From an archaeon HR01 (GTDB lineage: Archaea; Thermoproteota; Nitrososphaeria_A; Caldarchaeales; Caldarchaeaceae), in assembly GCA_002898355.1 (NCBI GenBank), contig BEHD01000009.1, positions 21,124 through 85,123 on the forward strand: 64,000 nucleotides of DNA, written 5' to 3'. This document shows, piece after piece, positions 8,680 through 48,571 of the stretch (position 1 is its first letter; each line of letters begins with the position of its first letter). A program made the translations under genes and the position numbers. The notes under the pieces were generated by a model, which searched no databases, was not told where the DNA came from, and was given only the letters and a program-made list of their open reading frames with translations.

Positions 8680-8750
8680 GCATATCTACAGTATTTTTTA
8701 AACCTCCACGGGGTAGGTAAATATATTTGTCACATTCGAGAGTCTGGGGG

Positions 8751-8939
8751 ATGGCCTTGGAGAACGTTTTCGGAGTCTTGTTGAGGTTTTTCACAGGAAC
8801 CCAGCGGGGTTTCTTGGTGTTGATAGAGTTGGCTGCGGCGGTTTTCGCGGCCTTGTTTATTCTGAAAACTCGGCGGAGAAGCAGAATTGAGGAGCCGGAG
8901 GTTTTAGAGGCCGAGGAAACCACCCCACCCTGCGGCTAA
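8751..8939 (+). CDS. Possible small single-pass membrane protein (62 aa)
   Basis: ATG 8751 lies within ORF 8727..8939. AAATATATTT TATA-like box at about 8719-8728, roughly 25 nt upstream, which would suggest a leaderless mRNA. One hydrophobic helix followed by an RRRSR stop-transfer. Weak. Confidence 0.3.
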   Translation: MALENVFGVLLRFFTGTQRGFLVLIELAAAVFAALFILKTRRRSRIEEPEVLEAEETTPPCG

Positions 8940-9001
8940 AACTGTTTGCAACAGTAATAGAAATCTTATATGCTAGGGCTGCAATATAATATCCGACCGC
9001 T

Positions 9002-9799
9002 ATGGTCCAGATAAGAGGAACCCTTTTAGCGCCTTTCTTCTTCTGGGCGGTGGGCGGGGTAATCGCCTTCCTAGCCATAACAGCCGCCGTCAACCCCGCA
9101 GGACCATATCTAGGCGTGGCCCAGTCACCCCAGCGGATAGCCTACTGGCATAGCTACGTCTTCCTAGTAGAACTTCCCATAGCACTACTGCTGGTAATGG
9201 CTTTTCTGAGGAGGGAGGAATGGAGGGCGCCACCCGGACGTTATGTCCCGGGCAGGAAATACCCAGCCCTCTCCACATGGCATCTCACAGCCATAGCCAT
9301 CATGGCAGCCTTCTACGCCGGAACAGGATTCATCGTAGGCATAACCAACATAGACATCGTAGCGTTGGTCACAGCCCTCCTAGCAATATACTTCGGGCCT
9401 GCGGTAGCCTTCCTCTCCATAATCGTGGGAGCCCTGATAAGATTTGCGCTGGGAGGGCTACCGTTCGTAGCACCCGCAGGCATCCTAGCCTTCGCAGTCT
9501 CCGACGCCTGCAGATGGGCCATCATAGGCTCGGTATACTGGTTCCTAGTGAGGGCTAGGGGAAGAGGCGTAACGACCGCAGGCTACTGGCTCCTCATGAT
9601 TCCCGTCGCCCTCCTAGTCCACGGCGGCTCTATCATAATGAGCTTCTGGTCTCAGGGGCCGTTCGAATGGGTTGTAGGCCAAGTCTCCTTCATGGCGTTC
9701 TGGTACCCCACCTCCATCATATCATATGTTATCGGTATGGCTGCTGCGGAGGGGCTTCACAGGACTACTGTGAGACGGCCTACAGCTGTGAAGGCCTAA
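9002..9799 (+). CDS. Polytopic membrane protein, function unknown (ECF-S-like feel)
   Basis: ORF track 265 aa, about 7 hydrophobic segments. Antisense and overlapping ORFs are compositional shadows. Confidence 0.6.
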   Translation: MVQIRGTLLAPFFFWAVGGVIAFLAITAAVNPAGPYLGVAQSPQRIAYWHSYVFLVELPIALLLVMAFLRREEWRAPPGRYVPGRKYPALSTWHLTAIAIMAAFYAGTGFIVGITNIDIVALVTALLAIYFGPAVAFLSIIVGALIRFALGGLPFVAPAGILAFAVSDACRWAIIGSVYWFLVRARGRGVTTAGYWLLMIPVALLVHGGSIIMSFWSQGPFEWVVGQVSFMAFWYPTSIISYVIGMAAAEGLHRTTVRRPTAVKA

Positions 9800-9901
9800 A
9801 CACCCCCCTTTTTTGCTTTTCTCCATCTTCACCGACCTCTTTTTGGTAAAGCGGCTGGACTCCCACATATAATAGAGCCACAGACAAGCCTCCTAGGACT
9901 T

Positions 9902-10284
9902 TTACCATTGCCTAATGTTTATTGTTGTGATCTCTTGGAAGTGTTTGTCTTTAGTTATTATTGTTTCCCTGCTATGTTGTACTATAGCCGCGATTAGTAT
10001 ATCAAACTCACTGAGCATTTTCTCAAGTCGCCATATATCATTCCCGCTATTTCGCAAGTATTCATGTCTAGACCTAGTATAGTTACGCTGTGGAGTAGCT
10101 GCTTCACTATCTCGATATTCTCGGCTGCTTTACTTGAGATCGCTGCACCTTTAAGAAGCTCGTAGACGGTTATTGTCGTAGTTTTAAACTGCTCGCCCAT
10201 TCTTTGCAGCTCCTCCACAGTCTCTACAGCCTTATTATCCCCCCGGAGCAGGGCTACGATTATGTCGGTATCCAGGCATACCAT
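9902..10284 (-). pseudogene. vapC: PIN-domain toxin VapC, interrupted by a frameshift
   Basis: ORF 9994..10284 gives MVCLDTDIIVALLRG..GDLRKCSVSLIY*. The next frame continues KMLSEFDILIAAIVQHSRETIITKDKHFQEITTINIRQW*, the conserved PIN C-terminus, and stops at 9902-9904. The frames switch near the A4 run at about 10018-10021. Confidence 0.65.
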
Positions 10285-10503
10285 CTAGATGGATACCTCC
10301 CTTGACTCAGCTTTTTCCCTTTCACGCATGATTATGTCAAACACATCGTCTATATCATCGCCAGCCCACCTACCCGCAAACTCTGACAAGGGCCTATACT
10401 TCGCCTGACCCACGAGGCGTAGTACCACATCGGAAAACGACTCGCCTTCTCTCTTCATTCTTTTAAGGGCTGCATAGGCCTCGTCCGAGAGTGATATTAC
10501 CAC
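10285..10503 (-). CDS. vapB: VapB-type antitoxin (archaeal PF02697/DUF217-like)
   Basis: ORF track 72 aa, MVISLSDEAYAALKRMKREGESFSDVVLRLV. Its stop abuts the vapC start. Confidence 0.7.
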   Translation of the reverse strand: MVISLSDEAYAALKRMKREGESFSDVVLRLVGQAKYRPLSEFAGRWAGDDIDDVFDIIMREREKAESREVSI

Positions 10504-10710
10504 CCTACAAGTTCTTCAGTATCTAAAGGAGAGAACCATGGTATTCCACAACAGATTAAGCGCAAGAAACCACACGCAAGGAATAGAGAACCTAAACCTC
10601 TTCACAATATACTATCATGCTATGGAAAATGGAGGTGGGTAGAAATGCTTATCCGGACACTATCGCTCGGTGTATGGTAAGGTTTTTAAGGAGTGTTAGG
10701 CGTTGTGGGG

Positions 10711-10941
10711 ATGAGGACCGTCTTGAGTGAAGATTATTTAATAGTTTCTGACCCCGCTATCTGTGGTGGTAAGCCGGTAGTTAGGGGGACCAGGGTTCCT
10801 GTGCAGTATATCCTGGAGCTTTGGGAGAGGGGTTATAGCGTTGAGGACATACATGAGCAGTATCCGACAGTCCCTAAAGAAATCATTAAGAAGGTCATCG
10901 AATACCTCGCAGAGAATAAGGTGTTCAAGATTACTCAATAA
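10711..10941 (+). CDS. DUF433 domain protein (putative antitoxin/HTH partner)
   Basis: ORF track 10693..10941; ATG 10711. DPAICGGKPVVRGTRVPVQYILELWERGYSVEDI is the DUF433 signature. Confidence 0.75.
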   Translation: MRTVLSEDYLIVSDPAICGGKPVVRGTRVPVQYILELWERGYSVEDIHEQYPTVPKEIIKKVIEYLAENKVFKITQ

Positions 10942-10970
10942 CAATTTTTAGCCGTGTTGCTTTGTTAGAA

Positions 10971-11327
10971 ATGGCTGAGGAATTATCCTTTATTGCGGAT
11001 GAGAACATTCCTTCCCAGGTAGTGAGGGAGCTTAGGCGTGCGGGATATAGAGTTGCCACAGTAGACCAGATAGCGAGGCCAGGCATAAGGAACGACGAGC
11101 TAGCAAGCCTATCCATCAAGCATGGCATGATTATAATAACCCGAGACGTTGATTTCACCCGGCTTAAACTAGACCTTATGAGAAAAATTAAGGCCGTATA
11201 CGTCAAGCTCAGGATGGAGCCAGACAAAATGGCAGAGTACATATTAAATAACCTGAGTAGCTGTATTGAAAAACTGTCAACAGCTAACGTAGTCATTCTA
11301 GATGAGGAAGGCTGTCATGCAATTTAA
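10971..11327 (+). CDS. DUF5615 (PIN-like) protein, partner of DUF433
   Basis: ORF track 10962..11327; ATG 10971. FIADENIPSQVVRELRRAGYRVATV..IIITRDVDF matches the DUF5615/PIN-like family, which is usually paired with DUF433. Confidence 0.7.
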   Translation: MAEELSFIADENIPSQVVRELRRAGYRVATVDQIARPGIRNDELASLSIKHGMIIITRDVDFTRLKLDLMRKIKAVYVKLRMEPDKMAEYILNNLSSCIEKLSTANVVILDEEGCHAI

Positions 11328-11470
11328 GACGACGCAAGCTCCAAAGCTTTACCGATCTTAGCCTAAATTCCATGAACAAACTAATTTATCCATCCCGTGA
11401 CAGTCGGAGGATTTTTCGACATGCTCTCCCAAACACTACATATAAATAGTGTCAACCAGAGTCCTAGGAT

Positions 11471-12274
11471 ATGTCAGAGCTTATACAGAGTGTTCTGGCA
11501 GGCCTCCGCGTCTACGATCTGGGACAGCCCTACTTTAACGGTATGCCGGTCCACCCCGAGGACCCGCCCTTCAGCATGGTGATTTACCGCTACCACGAAT
11601 ATACAAGGCAGCTCTTCGAGAAGGTGGCTCCCGGCTTCTCGGATTCGATGGAGCTGGTTATAACGAGTATGCATTCGGGGACCCATATAGACTCCAGATG
11701 CCACATGGCCCGTAACGGCCTCCTCCACAACGGTGTGAAAGCCTCCGAGATAGTGAGGCATACGGGCTATACGAGGTATGGTACTGAGGAGATACCCATA
11801 TACTTTACTAGGGCTGTCCTCCTCGACGTGCCCGGCTTTAAGGGGTTGGATATCCTCCCGCCTAGGTATGGGATAACCGCTTCAGACCTTGAGGGGTGTA
11901 TGCGCTGGGAGAATGTGGAGATTGGTAGGGGTGACGCGGTGTTGGTTAGGACTGGATATTCGAGGTATTTCACCACGGATAAGGAGAAGTATCTCCATGA
12001 CTTTGCGGGGATAACCGAGGAGAGTGCTTCATGGCTTATCGGGAGGGGTGTTTCGCTTCTCGGGATAGATAACCTGGCCATGGCTGTGCCGAAACCCTTC
12101 CAGGTTCATCTGATGTTTCTGGTGGATGCGGGGACCCATGTGATGAAGAGCCTCTACCTGGAGGAGCTGGCCAGGGACAGGCAGTATGTCTCCATCTTGG
12201 TGGTGGCGCCTCTGAAGATTTTGGGTGGGACGGGGTCTCTGGTGAGGCCTGTGGCTTTAGCTCCGAGGAAGTAG
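11471..12274 (+). CDS. Cyclase-family protein (kynurenine formamidase-like, PF04199)
   Basis: ORF track 267 aa. HSGTHIDSRCH metal motif. TATA CATATAAATAG about 25 nt upstream. Confidence 0.8.
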   Translation: MSELIQSVLAGLRVYDLGQPYFNGMPVHPEDPPFSMVIYRYHEYTRQLFEKVAPGFSDSMELVITSMHSGTHIDSRCHMARNGLLHNGVKASEIVRHTGYTRYGTEEIPIYFTRAVLLDVPGFKGLDILPPRYGITASDLEGCMRWENVEIGRGDAVLVRTGYSRYFTTDKEKYLHDFAGITEESASWLIGRGVSLLGIDNLAMAVPKPFQVHLMFLVDAGTHVMKSLYLEELARDRQYVSILVVAPLKILGGTGSLVRPVALAPRK

Positions 12275-12634
12275 CTAGTGGGTGAGGAGGCTGAGGGTTA
12301 GGACTGCGAAGACGAAGGCGGTTATCAGGATGAACTTCAGGTCTTTCACCGCTGCGAAGTATATCAGCGAGGTCAGGACTCTCGCATAGGGTGTCAGCAT
12401 TAGGAGGATTAGGCCGGCCGCTATGAGGGATTTGACGCCGGCCCCCATCACCGCCAGACCCTCCAGATATGCGTAGAAGCTGGGCGCGCTAACCCTGTAT
12501 TCCTCGGACAGCGATATCTCTAGGCCATGGGTGATGCTGTAGAGGGACACGCCTATGGCCAGTGTTGAGATGCTGGCCACCACACCGGTGAGGAGGACAA
12601 GGGAGAGGAGTTTCTCAAGCCTTTTCCCGTTCAT
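12275..12634 (-). CDS. DUF1634 membrane protein
   Basis: ORF track lists 12275..13060, but the first 142 codons are an Arg/Pro/His-rich out-of-frame overlap of the TauE gene. ATG 12634 (MNGKRLEKLLSLVLLTG) forms an ATGA overlap with the TauE stop. DUF1634 typically follows TauE. Confidence 0.7.
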   Translation of the reverse strand: MNGKRLEKLLSLVLLTGVVASISTLAIGVSLYSITHGLEISLSEEYRVSAPSFYAYLEGLAVMGAGVKSLIAAGLILLMLTPYARVLTSLIYFAAVKDLKFILITAFVFAVLTLSLLTH

Positions 12635-13455
12635 CCCATGACACCTCCGACAATCATGTGGGCCATGATGTAGAGGATTACTGCGAGGAATATTATTCGG
12701 GTGGTCTTGTTGCTGAGCTTGTTGAGGATTCTGGAGCCGAGGACGGCTCCCACCGTCGTGCCGATGGACATAGGTGCTGCGAGGCTTAGATATAGGAGGC
12801 CGGAGTCGAAGTATACGCTGGCCCCTGCTAGGGCGGTCATGCCTATTATGAAGCTGCTGGTGGCCGAGGATACTTTTGGAGGCATCTTCAGTATCAGCTC
12901 GTGTATGGAGACTTTGAAGGCTCCCGCACCTATTCCCAGCATGCCGGCCGCTATCCCTGCCACCAGCATCCCCCCTCCCGCAAGGATGGGTTTCGTCAAC
13001 CTGTAGCTGACCTCTCTGCCCAGCCTCTCGTCGTAGTAGCTGCCTGTAAGCCCTAGCCATCGGGCTGCCTTATCCTGCTCAACGTCCGAGGGAGGCATGT
13101 CTGTTATACGCCTCATCCCTAGGAAGGATGTTAGGAGGAAGGCTGCGAAGAAGAAGTAGAGGAGCCTCGGCGCTATATAGAGTGTTATTGTTGCGCCTAT
13201 GATTGCTCCCACTATTGTGAACATTTCTAGATACATGGCGGCTTTCACGTCCGATAGCCCTCGGCGGACGTAGGAGGCTGCGGAGCCGCTTGAGGTCGCT
13301 ATGATTGTTATCAATCCGGCTGCTATGGCGTTTTTGATGGGTATGCCCATTAAGGTGAGAAGGGGTGTGGTGATGCTGGCTCCTCCCAGGCCGGTTATAG
13401 AGCCTATGAGCCCTGCTAGGAATGAGATGGCTAGTACTTCGGCCAGCCCTACCAT
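12631..13455 (-). CDS. Sulfite exporter TauE/SafE family permease
   Basis: ORF track 274 aa. Duplicated 4-TM halves with G-rich motifs (GLGGASITTP, GIGAGAFKV). Confidence 0.8.
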   Translation of the reverse strand: MVGLAEVLAISFLAGLIGSITGLGGASITTPLLTLMGIPIKNAIAAGLITIIATSSGSAASYVRRGLSDVKAAMYLEMFTIVGAIIGATITLYIAPRLLYFFFAAFLLTSFLGMRRITDMPPSDVEQDKAARWLGLTGSYYDERLGREVSYRLTKPILAGGGMLVAGIAAGMLGIGAGAFKVSIHELILKMPPKVSSATSSFIIGMTALAGASVYFDSGLLYLSLAAPMSIGTTVGAVLGSRILNKLSNKTTRIIFLAVILYIMAHMIVGGVMG

Positions 13456-13562
13456 GTGGTGGGAGACCCCGGCCTGTTATTAATTAATTATTTGTCCGGA
13501 GGTGTTAGGCATCGTAACGCTAAATAATGAAGTTGTTGGTGGTTGTGGGTAGGTGAACGGGT

Positions 13563-13967
13563 CTGTCGGAGGCGCAGTTTGAGATAATCCTCGACCATTA
13601 CAGGAATCCGAGGAACTATGGGGAGCTGGCAGACGCCACCGTTAAGGTGAAGGATTCAAACCCTCTATGTGGTGACGTGGTGGAGGTATATCTCAAGATT
13701 GATGAGGAGGGCAGGGTTGTGAAGGCGTCCTTCAGGGGTCATGGATGCGCTATCAGCCAGGCCTCAGCCTCTATGCTCATCGAGTCTATCCAGAACAGGC
13801 ATGTAAGTGATTTGGTGAAGCTGGGCAGGCAGGACATCTTCAACATGCTGGGTGTCGAGGTGGGGCCTGTCAGAGTCAAGTGTGCGCTCCTATCCCTCAA
13901 GGCGGTCAAGACAGCCGCCTACTCCTATCTCGGCGAGAAGATGGATGCGGAGGAGTTTAAGGAGTAG
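13563..13967 (+). CDS. SufU/IscU-like Fe-S cluster scaffold; start codon unresolved
   Basis: ORF track starts at GTG 13647, but the in-frame upstream codons encode LSEAQFEIILDHYRNPRNYGELADATVKV, the conserved SufU N-terminus. NPLCGD, GHGCAISQAS and VKCALL are present. There is no ATG/GTG/TTG between the TGA at 13554 and 13647. CTG 13563 lies 6 nt after a GGTGA SD-like motif. Confidence 0.7.
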   Translation: MSEAQFEIILDHYRNPRNYGELADATVKVKDSNPLCGDVVEVYLKIDEEGRVVKASFRGHGCAISQASASMLIESIQNRHVSDLVKLGRQDIFNMLGVEVGPVRVKCALLSLKAVKTAAYSYLGEKMDAEEFKE

Positions 13968-14006
13968 ATAATGCTTTAATTAGATGATGCCTTACATCGG
14001 ATAGGT

Positions 14007-15176
14007 TTGAAGCTGGTCAAGGACCCCGTCCACGGCTACATCACCTTCACAGATCAGGAGATGCAGCTGGTGGATACGTATGCCTTCCAGAGGCTTCGGC
14101 GTATCAGCCAGCTTCCCTTCGTGTATCTGGTGTATCCCGGTGCTAGACATAGCAGGTATGACCATTCGCTGGGGTGCTTCCATCTGGCCGGGGAGTTCGC
14201 ACTACATCTTGGTCTGGACAGCTACGAGGCTGCGCTGCTTAAGACAGCGGCTCTCCTCCACGACCTAGGCCACACGCCGTACTCGCATCTTCTGGAGAGT
14301 CTTCTCGCTGAGAGGGGTGTGGCTCATGAGGAGTTGAGCGCCAAGATTATACTGGAGGATGAGGAGGTGGGTAGCCGGCTTGAGTCCTGCGGTGTCTCGG
14401 CCGAGGATGTGGTGAAGGTGTTGAGGGGTGGGAGTAGGCTTAGCCATCTGATTTCGGGGCCGCTGGATGTGGACAGGCTTGACTTCCTTGTCAGAGACGC
14501 ATACTTCACAGGGGCCACATACGGCGTGATAGACCTCAGACGGGTTATCATGCTCACCACACTTTACGATGATGGCCCGGCGGTGGATATCAGAGGTATC
14601 GGAGCGGTGGAGGAGCTGGCCCTTGCACGGTACCACTCATTCGTGAACATCTACTTCCACCATGCCGCTAGGGCGGCCCAAATCCTCTTCCTACACGGCG
14701 CCGAGAAGATTCCCGAGCTCGCCGACCTGGCCAGCAAAAGCGTATCGGAGTATCTTAGGTATGATGATTTCTCGGTCTGGTGTCTTATGAAGAGCTATGG
14801 CGAGACCCGCTGGGTTATAGATAGGCTGGAGAGGAGGATGCTACCCCGTAAAGTCTATGAGAGGACTGTGATGGGGGAGATGGATTCTCTGGGGATTCAT
14901 AGAAGGAGAAGGGAGCTGGAATACACCATAGCTGAGGAGTGCGGGGTTGAGCCTGACAAGGTCTTTGTAGACTCTTCACTGGCTCCACCCCTCACCAAGT
15001 ATGGCCCGAGCGAGATAAGATTATGCTCCGACGGAAAACTGGTTGTGGTGGACTCATGGATATTGAGGGAGCTGTCCAAGCCCATACACGTGGTGAGGGT
15101 CTATGTTGATAGAACTGTGGAGAAGGTTGAGAGGGTTTCCGAAATGGCTGAGAGGGTTATCTCATCCTCCTCATAA
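14007..15176 (+). CDS. HD-domain phosphohydrolase (dNTP triphosphohydrolase/SAMHD1-like family)
   Basis: ORF track 389 aa. VKDPVHGYI..FQRLRRISQL..RYDHSLG..LLHDLGHTPYSH..DVDRLDFLVRD. Confidence 0.8.
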   Translation: MKLVKDPVHGYITFTDQEMQLVDTYAFQRLRRISQLPFVYLVYPGARHSRYDHSLGCFHLAGEFALHLGLDSYEAALLKTAALLHDLGHTPYSHLLESLLAERGVAHEELSAKIILEDEEVGSRLESCGVSAEDVVKVLRGGSRLSHLISGPLDVDRLDFLVRDAYFTGATYGVIDLRRVIMLTTLYDDGPAVDIRGIGAVEELALARYHSFVNIYFHHAARAAQILFLHGAEKIPELADLASKSVSEYLRYDDFSVWCLMKSYGETRWVIDRLERRMLPRKVYERTVMGEMDSLGIHRRRRELEYTIAEECGVEPDKVFVDSSLAPPLTKYGPSEIRLCSDGKLVVVDSWILRELSKPIHVVRVYVDRTVEKVERVSEMAERVISSSS

Positions 15177-15759
15177 CTACCTTGATTATCCTCTCAGCTA
15201 TCTCACTCCTGCTTCCACGGCCGTCAACCCTCACCATCCTCCCACCCCTAACAAGCCTGAGATACTCCATCCTCACAGCGTTGAGAAAACGTCTCCGCTC
15301 ATAAAGCTCCACCTTTTTCATCCCAATCCTTCCCAGCGATGTTTCGACAGGCAGGTCTATGAATATTGATAGGTCCGGCTCCGGCGCCAGACTGTTTATC
15401 GCCTCCACCCATTCACGCCTGCCAGTCGCAGCCGACTGATAGGCTATCGATGAGTGGATATATCGGTCTGACACTATCGTCAACCCTCTGGCGAGGCCTG
15501 GATATATGAAATTCTTCAGATGTTCAAGCCTGTCCGCTGCGAAGAGAAGGGCTACAGACTCCTCGGAGAGGCCTAGATTTTTTCTTAGATGTCTTCTGAC
15601 AAGTCTGCCCACCGGACTGTCGGAGGGCTCGCAGGTGTAGACCGCTTTAACACCCATTCTTTCCAGCTTTCTCACCAACAGCCGGGCCTGGGTTGTTTTC
15701 CCAGCTCCATCCACGCCTTCCACAGCTATCAGATAGCCACGCCTACGCCCCAACCGCAT
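15157..15759 (-). CDS. tmk: Thymidylate (dTMP) kinase
   Basis: ORF track 200 aa. IAVEGVDGAGKTTQ P-loop, DRY motif (SDRYIHSSIAYQ). Confidence 0.85.
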   Translation of the reverse strand: MRLGRRRGYLIAVEGVDGAGKTTQARLLVRKLERMGVKAVYTCEPSDSPVGRLVRRHLRKNLGLSEESVALLFAADRLEHLKNFIYPGLARGLTIVSDRYIHSSIAYQSAATGRREWVEAINSLAPEPDLSIFIDLPVETSLGRIGMKKVELYERRRFLNAVRMEYLRLVRGGRMVRVDGRGSRSEIAERIIKVVMRRMR

Positions 15760-15817
15760 ACACCAGCCCAGAATTGTTACTCGTAAGATTTAAGAGGTCT
15801 CGAGAGACATTCAAACC

Positions 15818-17491
15818 ATGCAGGTTAGAGGGAGGATACATAGCGGCGACATAGCTGAGGGGGCCGAGAGGGCGCCCCAAAGGGCCATGCTACGTGCGGT
15901 CGGCCTCAGGGACGCTGACTTCTCAAAACCGTTCATAGGGATTGCCAGCACATGGAATGAGGTAACACCATGCAACCTCCACCTTGACGGCCTGGCTAAA
16001 AGGGCTAAGGCGGGTGTGTGGGATGCTGGAGGGGTTGGTATACAGTTCACGACGATAGCTGTTAGCGACGGCATCTCCATGAACACCGAAGGGATGAAGG
16101 GCTCCCTCATAAGCCGTGAGATAATAGCGGATAGCGTTGAGCTGATGGTCTTCACCCAGAGGTTTGACGGCTTTGTAGGGATAGCGGGGTGTGATAAGAG
16201 CCTTCCTGGGCTGGCCATGGCTATGGCCCGTCTCAACCTTCCCTCGATATTCCTCTATGGAGGAACCATCATGCCTGGAAAATATGGTGGGAGGGACATA
16301 ACCATCCAGGATATGTATGAGGCTGTGGGCGCCTACAGCTCCGGCCAGATAACCCTACAGGAGCTTCTGGAGATGGAGAAGACCGCATGCCCAGGTGAGG
16401 GCTCCTGCGCGGGCCTATACACCGCCAACACCATGGCATCGGCCTTTGAGGCTTTGGGCATATCTCTTCCCGGGACCGCCTCTATCCCCGCAGTGGATGA
16501 GAGAATATACGAGGCGGCCTACAGGTGCGGCCAGCAGGTCATGAAGCTGGCTGAGAACGGCATCCGGGCCCGTGATATAATGACCTACGAGGCTTTCGAG
16601 AATGCTGTGGCTACTGTATGCGCTATGGGAGGCTCCACCAACAGCGTTCTGCATCTTCCAGCGATAGCCCATGAGGCCGGTGTGAAGCTTTCGATAGATG
16701 AGTTCGACAGGGTGAGCAGGAGAACCCCCCATATAGTGGATATGAGGCCGTCTGGGAGATATGTTATGGTGGACCTGGACAGGGTGGGAGGCGTCCCCGC
16801 AGTTCTGAGGAAGCTCCTCGACGCCGGCCTACTCCACGGCGACACCTTGACCGTGACAGGTAAGACAATGGCAGAGAACCTGAGGGAGTTCAGATATTCC
16901 GATGGCGGGGAGGTGGTCAGGCCTCTCACCAACCCAATACATCCCACGGGCGGCATAGCCATCCTTAGGGGTAATATAGCGCCGGAGGGTGCGGTGGTCA
17001 AAGCCTCAGGCTCAGCGGTCCAGACCTTCAGGGGGAGGGCGAGGGTCTTCAACTCCGAGGAGGAGGCCTACAGGTCTCTTCTGAAGAGGGAGATAGAGGC
17101 CGGAGATGTTGTGGTCATCAGATACGAGGGGCCACGTGGAGGGCCCGGCATGAGGGAGATGCTGGCTGTAACCGCGTTGGTGGTTGGTCAGGGGTTGAAG
17201 GAGAAGGTGGCCCTAGTAACTGATGGAAGATTCTCCGGAGCCACCCATGGGTTGATGGTGGGGCATGTGGCGCCTGAGGCGGCTGTCGGCGGCCCGATAG
17301 CGGCTCTGAGGGATGGGGACATAGTCGTGGTGGATGTCCCGAACCGCAGGCTCGACGTAGAGCTTGGACAGGAAGAGATTGAGAGGAGGCTGGCAGAGTG
17401 GAGGCCTCCACAGCCAAGATACACAACCGGTGTGCTGGCAAAATACGCAAAGCTTGTAGGCTCGTCGGCTAGAGGAGCTGTCTGCGGATAG
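15818..17491 (+). CDS. ilvD: Dihydroxy-acid dehydratase
   Basis: ORF track 557 aa. [33 protein letters not shown] and RFSGATHG family blocks. Confidence 0.9.
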
Positions 17492-17525
17492 TGAAAAGCT
17501 TTTAATCCCCCCATCAGACGGAAGA

Positions 17526-17828
17526 ATGTTCGAGGGTGCTCCGCTCATGGCCCAGTCAAAGCAGGATTGGGAGAATAAGAGACAGCAGGTGGTCCAGATA
17601 CTGGAGACAATCATCAACGACATGGAGACCCCGAGAAACATACGCCGTATAGCAAAGCAGGCTTCGGAGGAGCTTTTCAACGAGAAATACGTCCCAGCCG
17701 TCCGAGCAGCCAACTCCATCGACATGATAGAGGAGATTATCAACGACCCTAACATGCCCAGCTTCACCCGCACCCAGCTCTGGATGGTGATAAGCATCCT
17801 CGAGACCATCAGGTCATCCCACAGCTAG
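17526..17828 (+). CDS. UPF0147 family protein
   Basis: ORF track 100 aa. TPRNIRRIAKQASEEL .. NDPNMPSFTRTQLWMVISILE matches the archaeal UPF0147 (PF03685) pattern from memory. Confidence 0.7.
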   Translation: MFEGAPLMAQSKQDWENKRQQVVQILETIINDMETPRNIRRIAKQASEELFNEKYVPAVRAANSIDMIEEIINDPNMPSFTRTQLWMVISILETIRSSHS

Positions 17829-17891
17829 CATTTTAGTAAAAAGTAAAAACAAACCATAAACAGAGATTATCAAAAATATCGGTGGAGACGT

Positions 17892-19268
17892 GTGAACAAG
17901 ATTGCCAACTATGCGGTGATCCTGGCCGGCGTCACAGCACTAGCTTACTTGCTAGGTCTAGAGCCGAGACAGGCAGCCTCCCTCATAATATTGGGCGGCA
18001 TGATAGGCGCCACCCTACTATTCTGGCGGTTCAGACTCGTATTCGCATTCTTCGCCCTCGCCTTCATGCTGGGGATAGACCTTTTGGAGATAGACCTGCT
18101 CATAGAGTTCGCCCACCTCGACACGATAATGTTCCTAGCCTCCATGATGGTTATTGTCGGCTACCTCGAGGACGCAAGGTTCTTCGAGGTTTTGATGGAT
18201 AGGCTGCTGGGGATGGTGGGGAACAGGCCGGTGGCGTTGGTGATATTCTTTATGGCTATGTCGGCATTTCTCGCAGCCCTCGTCGACGAGGTGACATCCA
18301 TACTGATAATGACGGCCATACTCCTCGACTTTACATCCCGCTACAACCTCAACCCCATCCCCTTCATCATACTATCCATCTTCGCAACCAACATAGGAAG
18401 CTCAGCCACAGTAGTGGGTAACCCCGTAGGTGTCCTGATAGCCTTCCAAGCCGGACTCGGATTCGCCGACTTCCTCCGCTGGGCCACACCCATATCCATA
18501 TCAGCCCTCCTCCTCAGCATACCCATCACCCTCTACATATTCAGAGCAGACATAAAGCAGCTGGCTAACGCCATGCGGCAGCAGGCCGCAACAGTCGCCC
18601 CAACCCGTACACAGGATAATGGCCAGCCATCCATATTACTGCCCTCAATAATCTTCCTAGCCACGATAGCCGGCCTAATACTCCATACACCGATAGAGCA
18701 GGCCTTCGGACTTGGAAAGAACTCCATGCTACTCGGCGTACCCTTCTTCTTCGCAGCGGTCGTCCTTTTCATCGAGAGGGAGAGGGCTAGAGAACTTGTC
18801 GAGAGAAGAGTTGACTGGTGGACACTACTATTCTTCATGATATTCTTCGCCAGCGTAGGCACCCTAAGCTACACAGGAGCCACTAGGGTATTCTCCCAGA
18901 TGATATACCAGCTCAGCGAAAACCCAATCATTCTCATGACCGTAGTAATGGTGATGGGCGGGATGATGTCGGCGTTTATGGATAATGTCCTAGCAGTAGC
19001 CACGTGGATACCAATCATACAAAACCTGGGCGAGCTGGGTGTCAACATCTCCCCCCTCTGGTGGACCACACTCTTCGCAGGAACATTCTGGGGCAACCTC
19101 ACCATCATTGGCAGCACAGCCAACATAGTGGCCGTCGGCCTTCTAGAGAGGAGGGAGCGCATCCACCTAACCCTTCGGCAGTGGATAGGCTTTGGAGCCG
19201 CAGTCACACTACCGACAGCAGCCCTAGCCCTCCTACTACTCTACCTCCAGCTCCCACTAATGGGCTAA
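17892..19268 (+). CDS. ArsB/NhaD-superfamily (CitMHS-like) anion permease
   Basis: ORF track 458 aa (GTG start), polytopic. Motifs NIGSSATVVGNPVG and GNLTIIGSTANIV are typical of the two hairpin repeats. Confidence 0.75.
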   Translation: MNKIANYAVILAGVTALAYLLGLEPRQAASLIILGGMIGATLLFWRFRLVFAFFALAFMLGIDLLEIDLLIEFAHLDTIMFLASMMVIVGYLEDARFFEVLMDRLLGMVGNRPVALVIFFMAMSAFLAALVDEVTSILIMTAILLDFTSRYNLNPIPFIILSIFATNIGSSATVVGNPVGVLIAFQAGLGFADFLRWATPISISALLLSIPITLYIFRADIKQLANAMRQQAATVAPTRTQDNGQPSILLPSIIFLATIAGLILHTPIEQAFGLGKNSMLLGVPFFFAAVVLFIERERARELVERRVDWWTLLFFMIFFASVGTLSYTGATRVFSQMIYQLSENPIILMTVVMVMGGMMSAFMDNVLAVATWIPIIQNLGELGVNISPLWWTTLFAGTFWGNLTIIGSTANIVAVGLLERRERIHLTLRQWIGFGAAVTLPTAALALLLLYLQLPLMG

Positions 19269-41482: not shown

Positions 41483-42112
41483 TCAACGGCCAAGGAGGCT
41501 GTACACCGCCTCATAATATCTCTCCACAGGCATCTCAGGCGTGAGTATGTAGCGGAGGACTAGCTCTCGATCTGCCACATAGACGACAGCCGAATGGGAT
41601 ACAAAATAGTTGTTAGTCGTGGCTGGGGGCTGGACGTCTCCAGACACCACATGATATCTCAGCCAAACATCCTTAAGCTCCTCCCAATCCCCAGTCAAAG
41701 CTACTATACGCCCACCATAGCGGCTCACCAACTCTTTAAGAGCCCTAGGATTATCCCTCGAGGGATCAGTGGTAACAAATATCATAACCACCTCCCCTGC
41801 CTTCTCTCCCAACATCTTATCCAACACCGCATATTTTGACAGCACCTCGGGACATAAGTCGGGGCAGCTGGCATAGCCGAAGAAAATGAGTACAACCCGC
41901 CCTCGTGCTGTGTGGAGGCTGAACTCTCTGAGGTCTTGATCTATGAGGGTGAAGTCTGGGAGAGCCATGCCGCTGGCTAGGACTGGCACCCCATATGATG
42001 CAGAGTTTTGGGCTTGGGAGCTGAAATAGAGATAGGAAATGGCGAAAACCGAGGCTATCAAAAAGGTGAGCAGGCTAGCCTTTCTTAGACCTGTCTGCCA
42101 CATACAAGACAC
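41483..42112 (-). CDS. SCO1/SenC-family copper chaperone (thioredoxin fold)
   Basis: ORF track 209 aa. N-terminal anchor and FFGYASCPDLCP (CxxxC) motif. Overlaps the 3' end of the NirK-like gene. Confidence 0.8.
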   Translation of the reverse strand: MSCMWQTGLRKASLLTFLIASVFAISYLYFSSQAQNSASYGVPVLASGMALPDFTLIDQDLREFSLHTARGRVVLIFFGYASCPDLCPEVLSKYAVLDKMLGEKAGEVVMIFVTTDPSRDNPRALKELVSRYGGRIVALTGDWEELKDVWLRYHVVSGDVQPPATTNNYFVSHSAVVYVADRELVLRYILTPEMPVERYYEAVYSLLGR

Positions 42113-43508
42113 CGATTAAGACGCCGAGACCGATGAGGAAGGCCAGCAATCCAGTAATATCTAATGAGAGCCCTCCGAATCCTCCTCCTTCAGGCTTGTA
42201 GACTATGATCGTACCTTTCATATATGGGTGAATGCCACAGACATAGTTGTATACGCCCTCTCGGTCGAAGGCGAAGTTGAAATATTCTGCGTTTTTGAGG
42301 AGGGGTGATGCAAAGCTGGCCGGCCCTTCAATCGCTGCTATGTTATGCTGGCCTGTAACCTCTCCGGCTCCGATGCTTAAGACATCCTCGTTGACCCATG
42401 TAACAGTCGAGCCGACCGGTATCTTGGCGATCTTAGGATAGTAGCTATTCCCCACTATCTGTATTGTTATCTTTTCTCCAGGTAGGAATATCTTGATGTC
42501 TTCATCTCCCACAGGCTCGAAGGGAGCCACCACCCTCTTGGGGTTTACAGGTATTGGGAGAGCCTTCCCCTGTGGATTGATGAATGGTGTTCTCTCTCCG
42601 TCCGCAGAGGATGATACCACCCCTACGGCACCCTTTATCGCCTGTGTTCCGAAGGCATGGGATACAAATAGAAAGCTCCCCTCAGAAGGCACCCTCCACT
42701 CTATTACGTAGGAGTCGGTAGGGCCGACCGTAACAGTCTGCAGGCCCTTCTCCACATTATCTGGGTTGCCGCCATGATATACATACTCCCATATGCCCCC
42801 AACAACATGGAAGCTGGAGGTCAGGCTTGGCCCAACATTGAGGAAGTAAAAGCGTATGTAGTCGCCTGGTCTTGCCAGTATGGGCTCGCTCAAATATCTA
42901 AAAACGCCCCCGTTAAACATGACGTATATCGGCTTGCCATCATAGAAATCTCTCCCGTTGGCGTAGAGTTCATGCTGTATGATGTAGGCCCTGATATCCG
43001 GCTCCCTCCCCAGCTCCTCCTCAAGCCTATACTTCTGGTGTTTAGGCTCGACAACCACCATGCCATACATTCCAGAAAGTGTGTGGGTTAATATGCCATG
43101 CCCTCCGGGGGCGCAGTGATACATGTAAACACCTGGGAAGTCTGCCTTAAACACAAGCCTGCCCTCCTTGCCGGGAGCTATGTTGCCTACAAACTTGGAT
43201 GTCTGGGTGTTGGCTGCATGGAATGAGAGGCCGTGGGTGTATTTCCCCTCATTTCTCACAACTATCTCAACTACATCCCCCTCCTCAACGATTATAAGGG
43301 GGCCGGGCATAGTCCCATTAAACGTGAACGCCCTAAACACCACACCCTCATCAATAACCACATCATTTTCAGCCGCTATAAGCAGAAAGGTTTTGTTAGG
43401 CTTTGCATCAGGCGGCGGATTACCGGGAACGGGGGCGTAGACTATCTGCGCAGACGCAGATGCCAGTGTGGCGACTAGAACAAATACGAGAGAAAGTGTT
43501 TTCAACAT
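42075..43508 (-). CDS. Copper-containing nitrite reductase (NirK)-like multicopper protein fused to a C-terminal amicyanin-like cupredoxin and a membrane anchor
   Basis: ORF track 477 aa. Signal peptide; HGLSFHAA (T1/T2 His pair); YMYHCAPGGHGILTHTLSGMYG (His-Cys..His..Met). The C-terminal domain has GQHN..CGIHPYM (C-x2-H-x2-M) and is followed by a TM helix LLAFLIGLGVLIGVLYV. Confidence 0.7.
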   Translation of the reverse strand: MLKTLSLVFVLVATLASASAQIVYAPVPGNPPPDAKPNKTFLLIAAENDVVIDEGVVFRAFTFNGTMPGPLIIVEEGDVVEIVVRNEGKYTHGLSFHAANTQTSKFVGNIAPGKEGRLVFKADFPGVYMYHCAPGGHGILTHTLSGMYGMVVVEPKHQKYRLEEELGREPDIRAYIIQHELYANGRDFYDGKPIYVMFNGGVFRYLSEPILARPGDYIRFYFLNVGPSLTSSFHVVGGIWEYVYHGGNPDNVEKGLQTVTVGPTDSYVIEWRVPSEGSFLFVSHAFGTQAIKGAVGVVSSSADGERTPFINPQGKALPIPVNPKRVVAPFEPVGDEDIKIFLPGEKITIQIVGNSYYPKIAKIPVGSTVTWVNEDVLSIGAGEVTGQHNIAAIEGPASFASPLLKNAEYFNFAFDREGVYNYVCGIHPYMKGTIIVYKPEGGGFGGLSLDITGLLAFLIGLGVLIGVLYVADRSKKG

Positions 43509-45001: not shown

Positions 45002-45925
45002 ATGGTTGTGAAAGATTTGGAGCTCGGTGCGGGAATGCCGGTCCGGAAACTGTTGGAGATGATGGGTGAGATGGGTGGTTTCATGGGCCCCCACCTATCA
45101 AAATCTTACCAGACCCTTCTGGAGATGTTGAGGGATGGTGAATGCCTCCGCATAATCTCCTTCACAGGAAATATCGTCTCCACAGGGTTGCGGGGGGTAC
45201 TGGCGGACATGGCTAGGCGGAGGCTTTTCAACCTATTCATAACCACCTGCGGTGCACTCGACCACGACCTAGCGAGGAGCAGGGCCGGATACGAGGCAGG
45301 AAGCTTCGACTCTGACGATTACGAGCTGGCTGAGAGGAATATCCACAGGCTGGGAAACGTGTGGATAAGCTCCAAGAGCTACGGTTCAGTGATAGAGTCT
45401 GAGATGCGTAGGCTCTGTGGGGAGCTGGAGGGGCCGGTATCCACCTACGAGCTATGCTGGAGGCTTGGCGAGAGGATAGACTCGGACAGCTCATTCCTAA
45501 CATGGTGCTGGCGTAACAAGATTCCTGTTGTGGTGCCTGGAATAGTGGATGGGGCTGTGGGGTATCAGCTCTGGCTAAACATGCAGGGTAGGAAGTTCTA
45601 CATAGACTTGATGAAGGACGAGTCACTCCTCAACGAGCTTATGTGGAGTCATACGAGGAAAGGCGGCCTAGTGCTTGGCGGCGGCATCTCCAAGCACCAC
45701 CTCCTCTGGTGGGCCCAGTTCGGCGGTGAAGGGCTGGACTACGCCATCTACATCTCCACAGCGGACGAGTATGACGGAAGCCTAAGCGGCGCAAGACCCA
45801 GAGAGGCGATAACCTGGCATAAGGTATCGGCTAAGGCTAAACATGTATTCGTCAAGGCAGACGCCACGCTAGCCCTGCCCTTCCTCTATCTGGCAACGCT
45901 GGAAGCCCTAGCTGAAAACCCATGA
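45002..45925 (+). CDS. Deoxyhypusine synthase family protein, paralog 1 (eukaryote-like C-terminal signature)
   Basis: ORF track 307 aa. GGGISKHH .. [30 protein letters not shown] closely parallels, from memory, human DHS GGGVVKHH .. [30 protein letters not shown]. The Lys equivalent to the catalytic Lys is retained. Confidence 0.8.
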   Translation: [307 protein letters not shown]

Positions 45926-46942
45926 AAGAGCTGGAGGCGACTCCCTCCTCCCCACCCTCTCAGCCAAGGCATGGGATATCAGCGGCAGTGCTATGGTCGC
46001 ATCGCAGAAGCATTGTACGGAATATCCATCAGGCGACTCCTTGCCCCAGCTCTTTCCCTCCTCGAGGGTGGCTCCTGACAGGCCGCCCCACTGGGGGCTG
46101 TCAGTGGTTATCTGCACAGCGTACTTGTGGGCCCTAGTCAGATATGGGTCTCCAGACGTTAATATGTCAACGGAGACGGCTGATAGCTGGATAAAGTCCT
46201 TAGGCACGCCTCCGCCTATGAATACTACGGCACTATCCTTATGTGCGGCCCGAATCCTCACGAGAAGCTCATAATCTTTGAAATGGTCTATGAGTAGCTG
46301 GAAGTTTCCGTCCTTGTATCTGTTTATAATGTAGGCTACTCCATAGCCGCTATCAACTATTGCTGGACAGAAGACTGGAACACCGGCCCTGTAGGCGGAG
46401 GCCAGTATGCCGTCTACACCTCTCTCGCTGAGCCACCTTCCCAGCTTGTTGAGAAACTCTGGGGAGGTGTAGGGCCGCCGCCTGTCAATACCTCTCATGA
46501 ATTCGGCCAGCATCTCCTCCATCTTGATATAGTCCTTTTCCCTCACATAGACATCGTGGAACCTGTATATCCCATTCTTCCTTAAGATGTGGTCGTCGAT
46601 GTATGGTGTGCCTATCCAGTAGTTGAAACCCATGGCCTCAATCAAGTCCTCGGATATGTTTGCCCCCGTGGAGACTAGAACATCCACCAGCCTGTTCTCT
46701 ATGAGCCATTTCACTATCTTCCACTGTCCGGTTGTGCTTAGCGAACCGGCATACCCCATCATAATAACTGTGTCCCTAGCTCTCGCAGCCCTCTCCCAAA
46801 TCTCCGCTGCAAGTGCGAGGTTCCTACCTTGGAACCCTGTCTCAGCCATAGCGGCTAGGAGCTCCGAAACTGATTTACGCCCAACCTCAACGGGCCTAAG
46901 CTTCTTCCTCAAGAGCTCCTCAACGTTTTTCGCTGTTTGCAT
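45908..46942 (-). CDS. dys: Deoxyhypusine synthase, paralog 2 (prokaryotic-type signature)
   Basis: ORF track 344 aa. GGGVPKDF .. YAVQITTDSPQWGGLSGATLEEGKSWGK. Converges on paralog 1 with an 18-nt overlap. Confidence 0.85.
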   Translation of the reverse strand: MQTAKNVEELLRKKLRPVEVGRKSVSELLAAMAETGFQGRNLALAAEIWERAARARDTVIMMGYAGSLSTTGQWKIVKWLIENRLVDVLVSTGANISEDLIEAMGFNYWIGTPYIDDHILRKNGIYRFHDVYVREKDYIKMEEMLAEFMRGIDRRRPYTSPEFLNKLGRWLSERGVDGILASAYRAGVPVFCPAIVDSGYGVAYIINRYKDGNFQLLIDHFKDYELLVRIRAAHKDSAVVFIGGGVPKDFIQLSAVSVDILTSGDPYLTRAHKYAVQITTDSPQWGGLSGATLEEGKSWGKESPDGYSVQCFCDATIALPLISHALAERVGRRESPPALSWVFS

Positions 46943-47017
46943 AACGTATCCTTCAAAGAATTAGCTTATATGTGTTTTTCTTTAAGGTTATGAGAAGCTT
47001 CTAACATTTCATCGTCT

Positions 47018-47518
47018 ATGATACCTGAGGAGAGGATTCGGACATTCCACGAGATGGAGAAGAGATATCGTATGCGGGATGTGGAATATTTCAAAAAGTT
47101 GACAAAGCATCCCGACATGACCATCAGGGCTAGGGCTACATGTATCCTCGCAGAGATTGGAGGGAGAGAATGTATCCCCGTTCTGGCCGAGGTCTTGCTG
47201 AAGGATGAGAACCCCATCGTAAGACATGAAGCCTCCTACTCCCTAGGGCAGCTCGGCTTCAAAGATGCCATACCATATCTCGTGGAGTCAGTATTGAACG
47301 ACCCCCACTTCATAGTCAGACATGAATCCGCCATAGCCTTAGGCGTGATAGGTAGGAAAGAGGCTGAGGAGGCTTTGATGAAGGCATTAGAGGATGAGAG
47401 CCAGGAGGTGAGGGATTCAGCCCTGATAGCCCTCAGCAACATAGCCTACTGCGAGCAGCTCTTCAGCGGAGAGCTTGATGAGGAGAAGCTGGCCTTTGCG
47501 AAGAAAACCGGAGGCTAA
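47018..47518 (+). CDS. Four-HEAT-repeat protein with two His-Glu motifs: half-size deoxyhypusine hydroxylase (DOHH)-like
   Basis: ORF track 166 aa. Repeats 2 and 3 read PIVRHEASYSLGQLG and FIVRHESAIALGVIG. Aligns by eye over about 110 aa with either half of human DOHH (LKHELAYCLGQ .. MVRHEAGEALGAIG). Divergently transcribed from the dys paralog 75 bp away. Confidence 0.6.
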   Translation: MIPEERIRTFHEMEKRYRMRDVEYFKKLTKHPDMTIRARATCILAEIGGRECIPVLAEVLLKDENPIVRHEASYSLGQLGFKDAIPYLVESVLNDPHFIVRHESAIALGVIGRKEAEEALMKALEDESQEVRDSALIALSNIAYCEQLFSGELDEEKLAFAKKTGG

Positions 47519-48066
47519 ACCAGTCTCCTCTTCTTCAAGGCAAGCTGGTACGCCTTCTCGGCGGCATCCACCGGGTCTGAAGTATAGTAGGCCGCCTGTA
47601 CCTTCCTATGGTCCAGATATCCGTCTGGATACATCTCCTTGAGAAGGTCGCTGGGATAGCCGGTGTCCGTTAATATGACCAGCGGCACCCCGTAGATGTA
47701 GGCTAGGTGTGCTTCTATTATGGTGCCTGAGCCCCCGCCCAGAATTATGAATGAGTCGCTGCTTCTTACAAGGCCTATGCTCCTAGCCTGGTATGTCTGC
47801 CCGCTTTTGAAGACGATCGTGTTGAAGGGGTTATAGCGTGGATGGCTGCTGTCGATGTCTTCATCTTCGTAGGGTATAACCCCAACTGTTATCCCTCCCC
47901 TCTTCACGAATTCATCGCAGACAACCCTCATCAGGCCGCCGTCCCCACCTGTGAAAAGGACCACGTCACGGTGTTCTGCCAGGGCTGCGGCCATTAGACG
48001 TGCTTTTTCAACCGCTTTAGGGATGGGAGAACGGTCGCTGGAGCAGCCCACACCAATCTGAATCAT
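47515..48066 (-). CDS. TIGR00725/LOG-like Rossmann-fold protein
   Basis: ORF track 183 aa. VLFTGGDGGLMRVV .. IILGGGSGTIIE. Confidence 0.75.
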   Translation of the reverse strand: MIQIGVGCSSDRSPIPKAVEKARLMAAALAEHRDVVLFTGGDGGLMRVVCDEFVKRGGITVGVIPYEDEDIDSSHPRYNPFNTIVFKSGQTYQARSIGLVRSSDSFIILGGGSGTIIEAHLAYIYGVPLVILTDTGYPSDLLKEMYPDGYLDHRKVQAAYYTSDPVDAAEKAYQLALKKRRLV

Positions 48067-48088
48067 GGAAGTTCTCTGGCCGCCTCAG

Positions 48089-48571
48089 CTAGAGCTTGGC
48101 CAGGATGTTCTCCCACTCCTCCTCGTCGTCAACCTCATCCTCTAAAAGCTCTTCAAAAAGCTCATGGGTGACGATGTCTGTCTGCCGGTATTTCTCCACC
48201 ATCTGGCTGTAGAACTTGATGGCGCATCTCTCAGCCTTGAGAACGTCCTCAATCAGCTTACGGTGGTCGGTCGGGTCCTCCGGAGGAGGTATGTAGCCGC
48301 AGCCGCTAGTCTTCAGAAGCCTATCAAAATCCAGGACTATCTTACCGCCCAGCTGTATAATGCGTCTGGCAGCCTTCTCGGCATGCTTCAGCTCATCCAT
48401 GGACTGTTTAAGCAGAATAGGTCTGAGAGTGTCAGCGTCAATACCTCTTATCCACTGGGCGGCCGCCCAGTACTGGTAGTGGGCCAGCCACTCATCCGCA
48501 TAGGTCTTCAAAAGGTCTGAGATAACCTCATCTACGTTGGCTTTAATAACCTCCCTGGCTGTCCTACCCAT
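48089..48571 (-). CDS. Ferritin-like / DPS-like (DPSL) four-helix-bundle protein
   Basis: ORF track 160 aa. DEWLAHYQYW .. DELKHAEK .. ERCAIKFY resemble di-iron ferritin-like ligand helices of archaeal DPSL proteins. Confidence 0.7.
   Translation of the reverse strand: MGRTAREVIKANVDEVISDLLKTYADEWLAHYQYWAAAQWIRGIDADTLRPILLKQSMDELKHAEKAARRIIQLGGKIVLDFDRLLKTSGCGYIPPPEDPTDHRKLIEDVLKAERCAIKFYSQMVEKYRQTDIVTHELFEELLEDEVDDEEEWENILAKL

Follow-up and report, generated by a model that had tools for sequence, protein, structure and literature searches.

Does the small HEAT-repeat protein encoded beside two deoxyhypusine synthase (DHS) genes in archaeon HR01 form hypusine? The question is raised by a 64,000-nucleotide stretch of contig BEHD01000009.1 (hereafter the window), in which a sequence-only reading had picked out a protein resembling one half of deoxyhypusine hydroxylase (DOHH) and had proposed it as the missing hypusine-forming enzyme of archaea. 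DOHH is the iron enzyme that carries out the last step of the essential eukaryotic hypusine modification of translation factor 5A, and hypusine on this factor (aIF5A in archaea, eIF5A in eukaryotes) is among the most specific of protein modifications. Papers published between 2016 and 2021 state that no archaeal DOHH ortholog had been found (PMC5178350, 2016; PMC6105217, 2018; PMC8153317, 2021). The claim that no archaeal DOHH had been identified stands in so far as no paper in the literature that we searched, with most subscription journals outside it, names one. It does not extend to automatic annotation: JGI labels many members of the family described here ‘deoxyhypusine monooxygenase’, and NCBI labels them ‘HEAT repeat domain-containing protein’. 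As far as we have seen, the similarity between this family and DOHH had already been picked up by software, apparently without closer examination. What is new is the half-size, presumably homodimeric form.

The open reading frame (ORF) and its two His-Glu motifs are as follows.
47018..47518, + strand: half-size DOHH-like HEAT protein of 166 residues; ATG-start ORF; Pfam HEAT_2 (5e-27) and HEAT_PBS (1.4e-16).
47222..47251, + strand: His-Glu motif 1, IVRHEASYSLGQLG, containing R69-H70-E71...G77-Q78 (RHEASYSLGQ); R69, H70 and E71 are nucleotides 47222–47230.
47315..47326, + strand: His-Glu motif 2, IVRHESAIALGVIG, V100-R101-H102-E103, from the ORF translation.

The 166-residue ORF had been described as four HEAT-like repeats. 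The sequence was exact, and the AlphaFold2 (AF2) model of the protein (pLDDT, the predicted local distance difference test, 95.3) contained an N-terminal helix, four HEAT repeats (residues 22–47, 50–79, 82–111 and 114–150), each a helix-turn-helix, and a C-terminal helix. In this model both His-Glu pairs lie on the second helix of their repeats, repeats 2 and 3. An all-alpha HEAT-repeat fold of the phycobilisome (PBS)-lyase type is therefore indicated by Pfam, by AF2 and by the fit to the human DOHH structure 4D4Z.

The human DOHH sequence used as a query was identical to chain A of 4D4Z over residues 1–289, and the human motifs quoted in the sequence-only reading were correct when checked against that chain. 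In BLASTP the ORF protein aligned with both the N-terminal half of human DOHH (34% identity over 120 residues; residues 18–134) and the C-terminal half (38% over 104 residues; residues 175–277). In these alignments H70/E71 lie opposite human H56/E57 and H207/E208, and H102/E103 lie opposite H89/E90 and H240/E241. The glycine of motif 1 (G77) is opposite G63 and G214, with G77-Q78 opposite the human LGQ, and motif 2 is opposite VRH89E90 and VRH240E241. Between and beyond the motifs, ‘AIPYLV’ of the ORF is opposite human ‘AIPMLV’, and the D..(E)VR of the last repeat is likewise in register. The alignments thus recovered both the DOHH-specific contexts that had been noted for the motifs of repeats 2 and 3 and the match to a single DOHH half, including IP.LV and the trailing D....VR repeat. 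In human DOHH, mutagenesis and crystal structures identify H56, H89, E90, H207, H240 and E241 as iron ligands, and E57, E208, G63 and G214 as substrate-binding residues.

Human DOHH (4D4Z and 4D50) and yeast Lia1 have the HEAT_PBS-type fold in common with the ORF protein, and in each of their four-repeat units, as in the ORF protein, repeats 2 and 3 bear the His-Glu motifs. The contexts H-E-x-x-[YF]-x-L-G-Q and V-R-H-E-x-x-x-A-L-G are common to the ORF protein and eukaryotic DOHH, with 33–38% identity per half. The two differ in size: eukaryotic DOHH has ∼300 residues, four motifs and an eight-repeat 4+4 dyad in one chain, whereas the ORF protein has 166 residues, four repeats and two motifs. 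In addition, the residue before VRHE in motif 2 is Met in human DOHH and a hydrophobic Ile or Phe in the half-size family. The alignments show the four HEAT repeats of the ORF protein to be homologous, in register, to those of either half of eukaryotic DOHH. Given its half length and its two motifs per chain, a homodimer would be needed to build a DOHH-like site.

Relatives of the ORF protein are widespread. At E ≤ 1e-5, 224 clusters match it, under names including Caldarchaeum, Nitrososphaerota/Thaumarchaeota, Nitrosocaldus and Bathyarchaeia; homologs 60–82% identical to it are labelled ‘Candidatus Caldarchaeum’, which places the window in Caldarchaeales (formerly Aigarchaeota). With one genome taken per GTDB species, at least 542 species genomes hold a relative, and the carriers span Caldarchaeales, ammonia-oxidising Nitrososphaeria and Bathyarchaeia. 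We aligned 35 diverse members (36–82% identity to the ORF protein) from Caldarchaeales, Nitrososphaerales/Nitrosopumilales, Nitrosocaldus and Bathyarchaeia. R69-H70-E71, G77-Q78 and V100-R101-H102-E103 were invariant in all 35. The sequence-only reading had named in advance, as evidence that would tell against it, His-Glu pairs that vary among orthologs; what was found was complete invariance across three archaeal classes.

The generic background came from a family-profile search of 1.84 billion representatives. Its ranking by summed score was dominated by giant multi-repeat HEAT proteins, and it was used as background and as the source of a tandem relative described below (P0133). From 149 top-scoring generic HEAT proteins, 1127 four-repeat segments were aligned to the family model. 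His-Glu occurred at 14 of the 2254 sites in these segments, and at both sites in just one segment, in agreement with the earlier statement that generic PBS-lyase HEAT repeats normally read VR(R/K/W)xAA and not VRHE. Both pairs were present in 214 of 222 DOHH-type halves (111 proteins). Judged from these alignments, the His-Glu pair is a specific signature shared by the family and DOHH, and not a by-product of repeat similarity.

Scores against solved structures gave the same ordering among natural proteins. With the single ORF sequence as query, human DOHH was the best natural protein (83.6 bits), and with the family profile it was again the best (149 bits), compared with 45 bits for YibA, 30 for MTH187 and 28 for CpcE. 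The comparison of DOHH with natural generic HEAT and PBS-lyase proteins that had been suggested from sequence therefore came out in favour of DOHH. An hhalign comparison of the family alignment with human DOHH gave a probability of 98.8. Among designed proteins, the computational HEAT homotrimer 6veh scored 113 bits with the family profile, and artificial consensus alphaRep proteins exceeded DOHH in summed sequence score and had slightly better Foldseek E-values. AlphaReps, as idealised HEAT_PBS repeats, can be expected to match the whole superfamily. Scored per domain with the family model, the two human DOHH halves gave 73.8 and 73.0 bits and the DOHH-type list a median of 81, compared with a median of 58 and a maximum of 90 for the top generic HEAT proteins.

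Foldseek placed the monomer model on 4D4Z with a root-mean-square deviation (rmsd) of 1.9 Å over 128–130 columns at 34% identity, and on alphaReps with an rmsd of ∼7.5 Å; the curvature of the modelled solenoid is therefore that of DOHH. As AF2 training included 4D4Z, the agreement between model and structure is not fully independent. Generic PBS-lyase HEAT proteins (MTH187, YibA, CpcE/CpcF and NblB) and alphaReps have the same 31-residue repeat and Pfam families as the ORF protein. The generic PBS-lyase HEAT proteins lack the His-Glu pairs and have much lower profile scores than DOHH, and the superhelical geometry of generic HEAT proteins and alphaReps is unlike that of the model (rmsd ∼7.5–8.7 Å). 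By single sequence and family profile against the Protein Data Bank (PDB), and by the search with the tandem relative, the closest characterised relative of the family is DOHH.

This tandem relative, P0133, is a 363-residue protein with two complete family domains and four His-Glu motifs. Unlike the ORF protein it is fused, and its N terminus may either include a hydrophobic segment or reflect a wrongly called start. Its halves are 46–48% identical to half-size members, and both nest within the half-size family. Searched against 5.8 billion proteins, P0133 found half-size relatives first (46–53% identity) and then bona fide eukaryotic DOHHs of plants, fungi, red algae and nematodes (30–34% identity over 70–80% of the query). 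A single-sequence AF2 model of P0133, of moderate quality (pLDDT 72.7), matched whole human DOHH (4D4Z) with a template-modelling (TM) score of 0.78 over ∼305 columns; all other structures scored 0.61 or below. The tandem is thus predicted, from this model, to fold as a DOHH-like dyad.

The P0133 search also found ∼280-residue proteins of DPANN archaea with four His-Glu motifs. These proteins (P0297, ‘Nanoarchaeota archaeon’, and P0302, labelled ‘deoxyhypusine monooxygenase’ by JGI) have the 4+4 arrangement in single full-size chains, with ∼31% identity per half to the family. Their motif residues (VKHEC and V[IL]HE[GA]) are unlike those of the half-size family, and their own two halves are mutually closest, which argues that their fusion was independent. 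In a neighbour-joining tree of halves (118 columns; a crude method), the N- and C-terminal halves were sister pairs in eukaryotes, in DPANN archaea and in P0133, with the P0133 pair inside the half-size family. Read at face value, the tree implies no fewer than three separate fusions of halves, among them those of the eukaryotic, DPANN and P0133 lineages; gene conversion between halves could mimic such a pattern. Repeated independent fusion would be expected of a half-size protein that already functions as a dimer. The tandem P0133 itself is evidence for a dimer by the Rosetta-stone logic that separate proteins found fused elsewhere probably work together.

We consider it likely, with good confidence, that the ORF protein is truly homologous to one half of DOHH and that, as a dimer, it binds a dinuclear metal site. 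Rather less firmly, we favour its being a homodimeric di-iron deoxyhypusine hydroxylase, and we lean to the same degree towards aIF5A as the protein on which it would hydroxylate deoxyhypusine. In the mechanism that we propose, DHS would first supply the aminobutyl chain on the conserved aIF5A lysine. Two chains of the ORF protein would pair with their concave faces together, like the two halves of DOHH, so that H70, H102 and E103 of each chain could build a carboxylate/histidine di-iron site and E71 and G77 could line a pocket for the deoxyhypusine side chain. The dimer would then activate O2 and hydroxylate C2 of the aminobutyl chain to give hypusine. The half-size homodimer would be the ancestral form, and eukaryotic DOHH its duplicated and fused descendant. 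Oxygen-related genes in the window encode SCO1/SenC and a multicopper oxidase, and the ammonia-oxidising carriers are obligate aerobes; an O2-dependent enzyme is therefore plausible in those lineages.

Two elements of the half-size family did not align with human DOHH. The first is an extra N-terminal helix (residues 1–18; window positions 47018–47059) with an invariant glutamate, E14, in an ‘EME’ motif; the second is a C-terminal tail, ‘..F(A/T/S)(K/R)(L/M)TGG’, which is conserved among the Nitrososphaeria members of the family alignment. Both may be dimerisation or aIF5A-docking elements. Two further proteins, P0427 and P0466, are ∼72–74% identical to Bathyarchaeia proteins and carry the NCBI labels Terriglobales and ‘Candidatus Acidoferrales’ bacterium. 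These bacterial labels probably reflect contamination during metagenome binning rather than bacterial homologs. Among the matches listed in the homolog search with a Bathyarchaeia member, close Bathyarchaeia relatives predominated.

The genes that adjoin the ORF in the window are listed here.
45002..45925, + strand: DHS paralog B, 307 residues, crenarchaeal-type; NCBIfam NF002294, 384 bits (passes the cutoff, 350).
45908..46942, − strand: DHS paralog A, 344 residues, with the canonical SWGK catalytic-lysine motif; Pfam DS 4.2e-90.
46943..47017, no strand: divergent intergenic region of 75 bp, A+T-rich, with TATA-like ‘ttatatg’ and ‘tttaagg’, read from the sequence.
47515..48066, − strand: SLOG/LOG-like TIGR00725 protein; Pfam LDcluster4 and TIGR00725; convergent with the HEAT gene, with a 4-bp overlap.
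48089..48571, − strand: Dps/ferritin-like iron-storage protein; Pfam Ferritin 4.8e-24, with the NCBIfam archaeal DPS model below its cutoff.

The DHS paralog divergent from the HEAT gene and 75 bp from it (paralog A) was confirmed at this position; paralogs A and B are convergent and overlap by 18 bp. Paralog B gave 285 bits against PDB chain 8PUT_A (‘Probable deoxyhypusine synthase’), and is probably the aIF5A-modifying DHS. 8PUT is the DHS of Sulfolobus islandicus from its complex with aIF5A. Where the 8PUT chain has SWNK, paralog B has TWHK. Paralog A scored below all cutoffs (NCBIfam PRK00805, 401 bits against a cutoff of 434), and its nearest solved structure was P. horikoshii DHS 7CMC, at 138 bits. 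It also gave 252 bits with the model for 1,9-bis(guanidino)-5-aza-nonane synthase. Polyamine synthesis, and not modification of aIF5A, may be the role of paralog A.

The tandem P0133 is encoded in a cluster of its own (L090/L093), which occupies positions 3480–11902 of L093 (Logan contig SRR21363124_14, range 6355–18257). Its eight genes, in order, are as follows.
Gene 1: TauD/GBBH-like dioxygenase dependent on iron and 2-oxoglutarate (Fe/2OG).
Gene 2: IF5A-N-domain-only protein whose hypusination loop, KAGKHGG, is canonical; long acidic N-terminal extension, no C-terminal OB domain.
Gene 3: DHS.
Gene 4: pyridoxal phosphate (PLP)-dependent Orn/Arg decarboxylase.
Gene 5: CN-hydrolase, from the group to which N-carbamoylputrescine amidase belongs.
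Gene 6: agmatine deiminase.
Gene 7: tandem DOHH-like P0133.
Gene 8: second IF5A-N-like gene, with a KTGKQGH loop; Pfam IF5A-like_N 30.9 bits, above cutoff.

This gene order amounts to a polyamine-plus-hypusination cluster, the strongest gene context seen for the family, and its short IF5A-like proteins could be new substrates for (deoxy)hypusination. A viral origin of the cluster was considered and rejected, as a scan of IMG/VR found no relatives. Counting across the family, hypusine or polyamine genes lay near a family gene in 4 of ∼14 independent contexts, compared with ∼3–4% expected by chance on a rough estimate. One such context is in Bathyarchaeia, where spermidine synthase is the convergent neighbour in the P0097 lineage; as support for a hypusine role this adjacency is weak.

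Several observations weigh against a role in hypusine formation. Loci were compared among the best 80 of the at least 542 species, which belong to Caldarchaeales and the ammonia-oxidising Nitrosopumilales and Nitrososphaerales. In tblastn searches with both DHS proteins of the window, DHS was absent from 78 of these 80 loci; in the other two (Caldarchaeales L004 and L006) orthologs of paralog B lay ∼5 kb from the HEAT gene. In the relative that is 82% identical (L081, L082), the SLOG and Dps neighbours are kept and a NifU_N gene stands upstream, with no DHS. The adjacency to DHS noted from sequence is real in the window, but it is specific to the lineage, and we rejected it as a conserved linkage. 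Linkage to DHS and polyamine genes is sporadic across the family as a whole, and even the spermidine synthase neighbour of the P0097 lineage is absent from the 74%-identical P0093 lineage. The recurrent neighbours are instead related to iron and redox functions (Dps, NifU, a thioredoxin-like protein and anaerobic ribonucleotide reductase). Adjacency to the last of these, NrdD, in Bathyarchaeia sits poorly with an enzyme that depends on O2, and some carriers there are probably anaerobic. The geometry of the dimer, in turn, rests on the single-sequence AF2 model of another protein, P0133 (pLDDT 72.7), and AF2 was trained on 4D4Z.

Published data on hypusine itself also count against a general role. 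PMC5178350 cites a 1990 survey for hypusine in Sulfolobus, Acidianus, Pyrodictium and Thermoproteus; Pyrodictium and Thermoproteus are strict anaerobes. An aIF5A pull-down from S. solfataricus contained nothing DOHH-like (PMC6105217). Given hypusine in strict anaerobes and this pull-down, the family cannot be the whole answer for archaea, and the anaerobic hypusine-containing Crenarchaeota must rely on something else. The proposal of a missing archaeal hypusine-forming enzyme is thus supported as a candidate in the carrier lineages and does not extend to all archaea: at best, the family is the hypusine-forming enzyme of some archaeal lineages, those that carry it.

The gene contexts bear most directly on an alternative in which the protein is a DOHH-like dinuclear-metal HEAT protein with a target other than aIF5A, either another amine or polyamine substrate or the handling of iron and oxidative stress. 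The Dps/ferritin and SLOG/LOG-like neighbours kept in the closest relative, with NifU_N upstream there, favour this alternative, as do the thioredoxin-like divergent neighbour in 65 of the 80 loci (mostly Nitrosopumilales), the anaerobic ribonucleotide reductase neighbour in Bathyarchaeia, the rarity of DHS linkage and the atypical, N-domain-only form of the L093 IF5A-like genes. Against it, DOHH is the only characterised enzyme with such a fold and motif set, and the family shares with DOHH the Gly after motif 1 and an aromatic residue at H+4. Such pathway genes as occur near the family encode DHS, IF5A-like proteins or polyamine enzymes, and the family gene belongs to the single-copy core set and sits among housekeeping genes, as would suit a modifier of a translation factor. 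We regard another target as rather unlikely, though it is the alternative that survives best.

A second alternative is a non-catalytic scaffold or adaptor of the HEAT/PBS-lyase type, whose likeness to DOHH would lie in repeat architecture only. For the 166-residue protein, Pfam and NCBIfam return generic HEAT families only (HEAT_2 and HEAT_PBS), and both libraries are without a DOHH-specific model. The alphaRep scores given above also fit a scaffold, and 113,883 representatives match the family profile at E ≤ 0.001. The His-Glu pairs are nevertheless invariant where generic repeats vary, the rmsd to DOHH is far smaller than that to alphaReps, and the tandem P0133 retrieves eukaryotic DOHHs, not generic HEAT proteins. 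The NCBIfam scores for NblB (49 bits; cutoff 300), CpcE (28; cutoff 330) and CpcF (25; cutoff 220) lie far below their cutoffs, and the carriers are non-phototrophic archaea without phycobilisomes; on both grounds an identity as a PBS lyase or NblB was rejected. The invariant motifs and the repeated fusions make the scaffold improbable, as they do a sensor or chaperone.

A metal-binding sensor or metallochaperone, acting as a monomer or in a hetero-complex and not as an oxygenase, would suit the iron-related neighbours (Dps, NifU and SCO1/SenC) and the occurrence of the family in probable anaerobes, but is the least credible reading and very improbable, as both the apparent three independent tandem fusions and the L093 hypusine cluster point to a DOHH-like two-half unit, and no HEAT-repeat metallochaperone carrying this motif is known to us.

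Beyond the hydroxylase itself, we put forward a wider scenario more tentatively. The half-size, homodimeric di-iron DOHH may be ancestral and belong to the core genes of Bathyarchaeia and Nitrososphaeria, every ammonia-oxidising archaeon included, with the full-size DPANN proteins a separate development. These archaea would then make true hypusine. Eukaryotic DOHH would derive from such an archaeal half that was duplicated and fused, as would have happened no fewer than three times, and hypusination would be hinted at for the short IF5A-like proteins. The family provides a defined archaeal DOHH candidate in cultured organisms (Nitrosopumilus and Nitrososphaera). If the assignment is true, it shows how a HEAT-repeat di-iron oxygenase originated, from homodimer to fused dyad, and places the origin of complete hypusination before eukaryogenesis; the 166-residue protein would also offer a minimal scaffold on which the long-lived peroxo-diiron intermediate could be studied.

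The surroundings of the HEAT gene differ among lineages in other respects. The HEAT-SLOG-Dps trio is found both in the window (47515–48571 for the SLOG and Dps genes) and in the relative L081 (2700–4698), where the NifU_N scaffold gene replaces the DHS genes; the trio, with NifU_N in the relative, may be a link to iron supply. In the 65 loci with the thioredoxin-like neighbour (L009–L080, mostly Nitrosopumilales), this divergent gene is of the redoxin/TlpA type, encodes ∼220 residues and lies ∼105 bp upstream of the HEAT gene. The same 65 loci have the gene for ribosomal protein L15e farther upstream, and blue-copper and Rad50/Mre11 genes downstream. In Bathyarchaeia (L083–L086 and L097–L099, 2549–4864) the family gene is always divergent from that for NrdD. 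Housekeeping neighbours in other lineages include Trm5/TYW2, inosine monophosphate (IMP) dehydrogenase, tryptophan synthase and Cdc6. The DPANN DOHH-like gene (L091 6001–6849; L095 6001–6849) also has housekeeping neighbours: a convergent gene for a NOG1-type GTPase, whose 3′ end it overlaps, and, close by, PCNA.

An Rfam scan of the window returned no RNA family, and a bacterial-type promoter and terminator scan around the HEAT gene gave nothing informative, which is no surprise in an archaeon. A tblastn search of the window with a Pyrococcus aIF5A query detected no aIF5A gene. The remaining gene content of the window is that of a usual archaeal chromosome and includes genes for a dihydroxy-acid dehydratase, an acetolactate synthase-like protein, an acetyl-CoA synthetase, a phosphoenolpyruvate (PEP)-utilising enzyme and SCO1/SenC, together with the multicopper oxidase.
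42075–43508, − strand: multicopper oxidase/cupredoxin of 477 residues, with a membrane anchor and, at the C terminus, a plastocyanin-like domain, from the window annotation.

In 24 of the 80 loci, tblastn placed blue-copper genes related to this multicopper oxidase next to the HEAT gene. Ammonia-oxidising archaea have many blue-copper genes in their genomes, and their neighbourhood with the HEAT gene is therefore probably coincidental.

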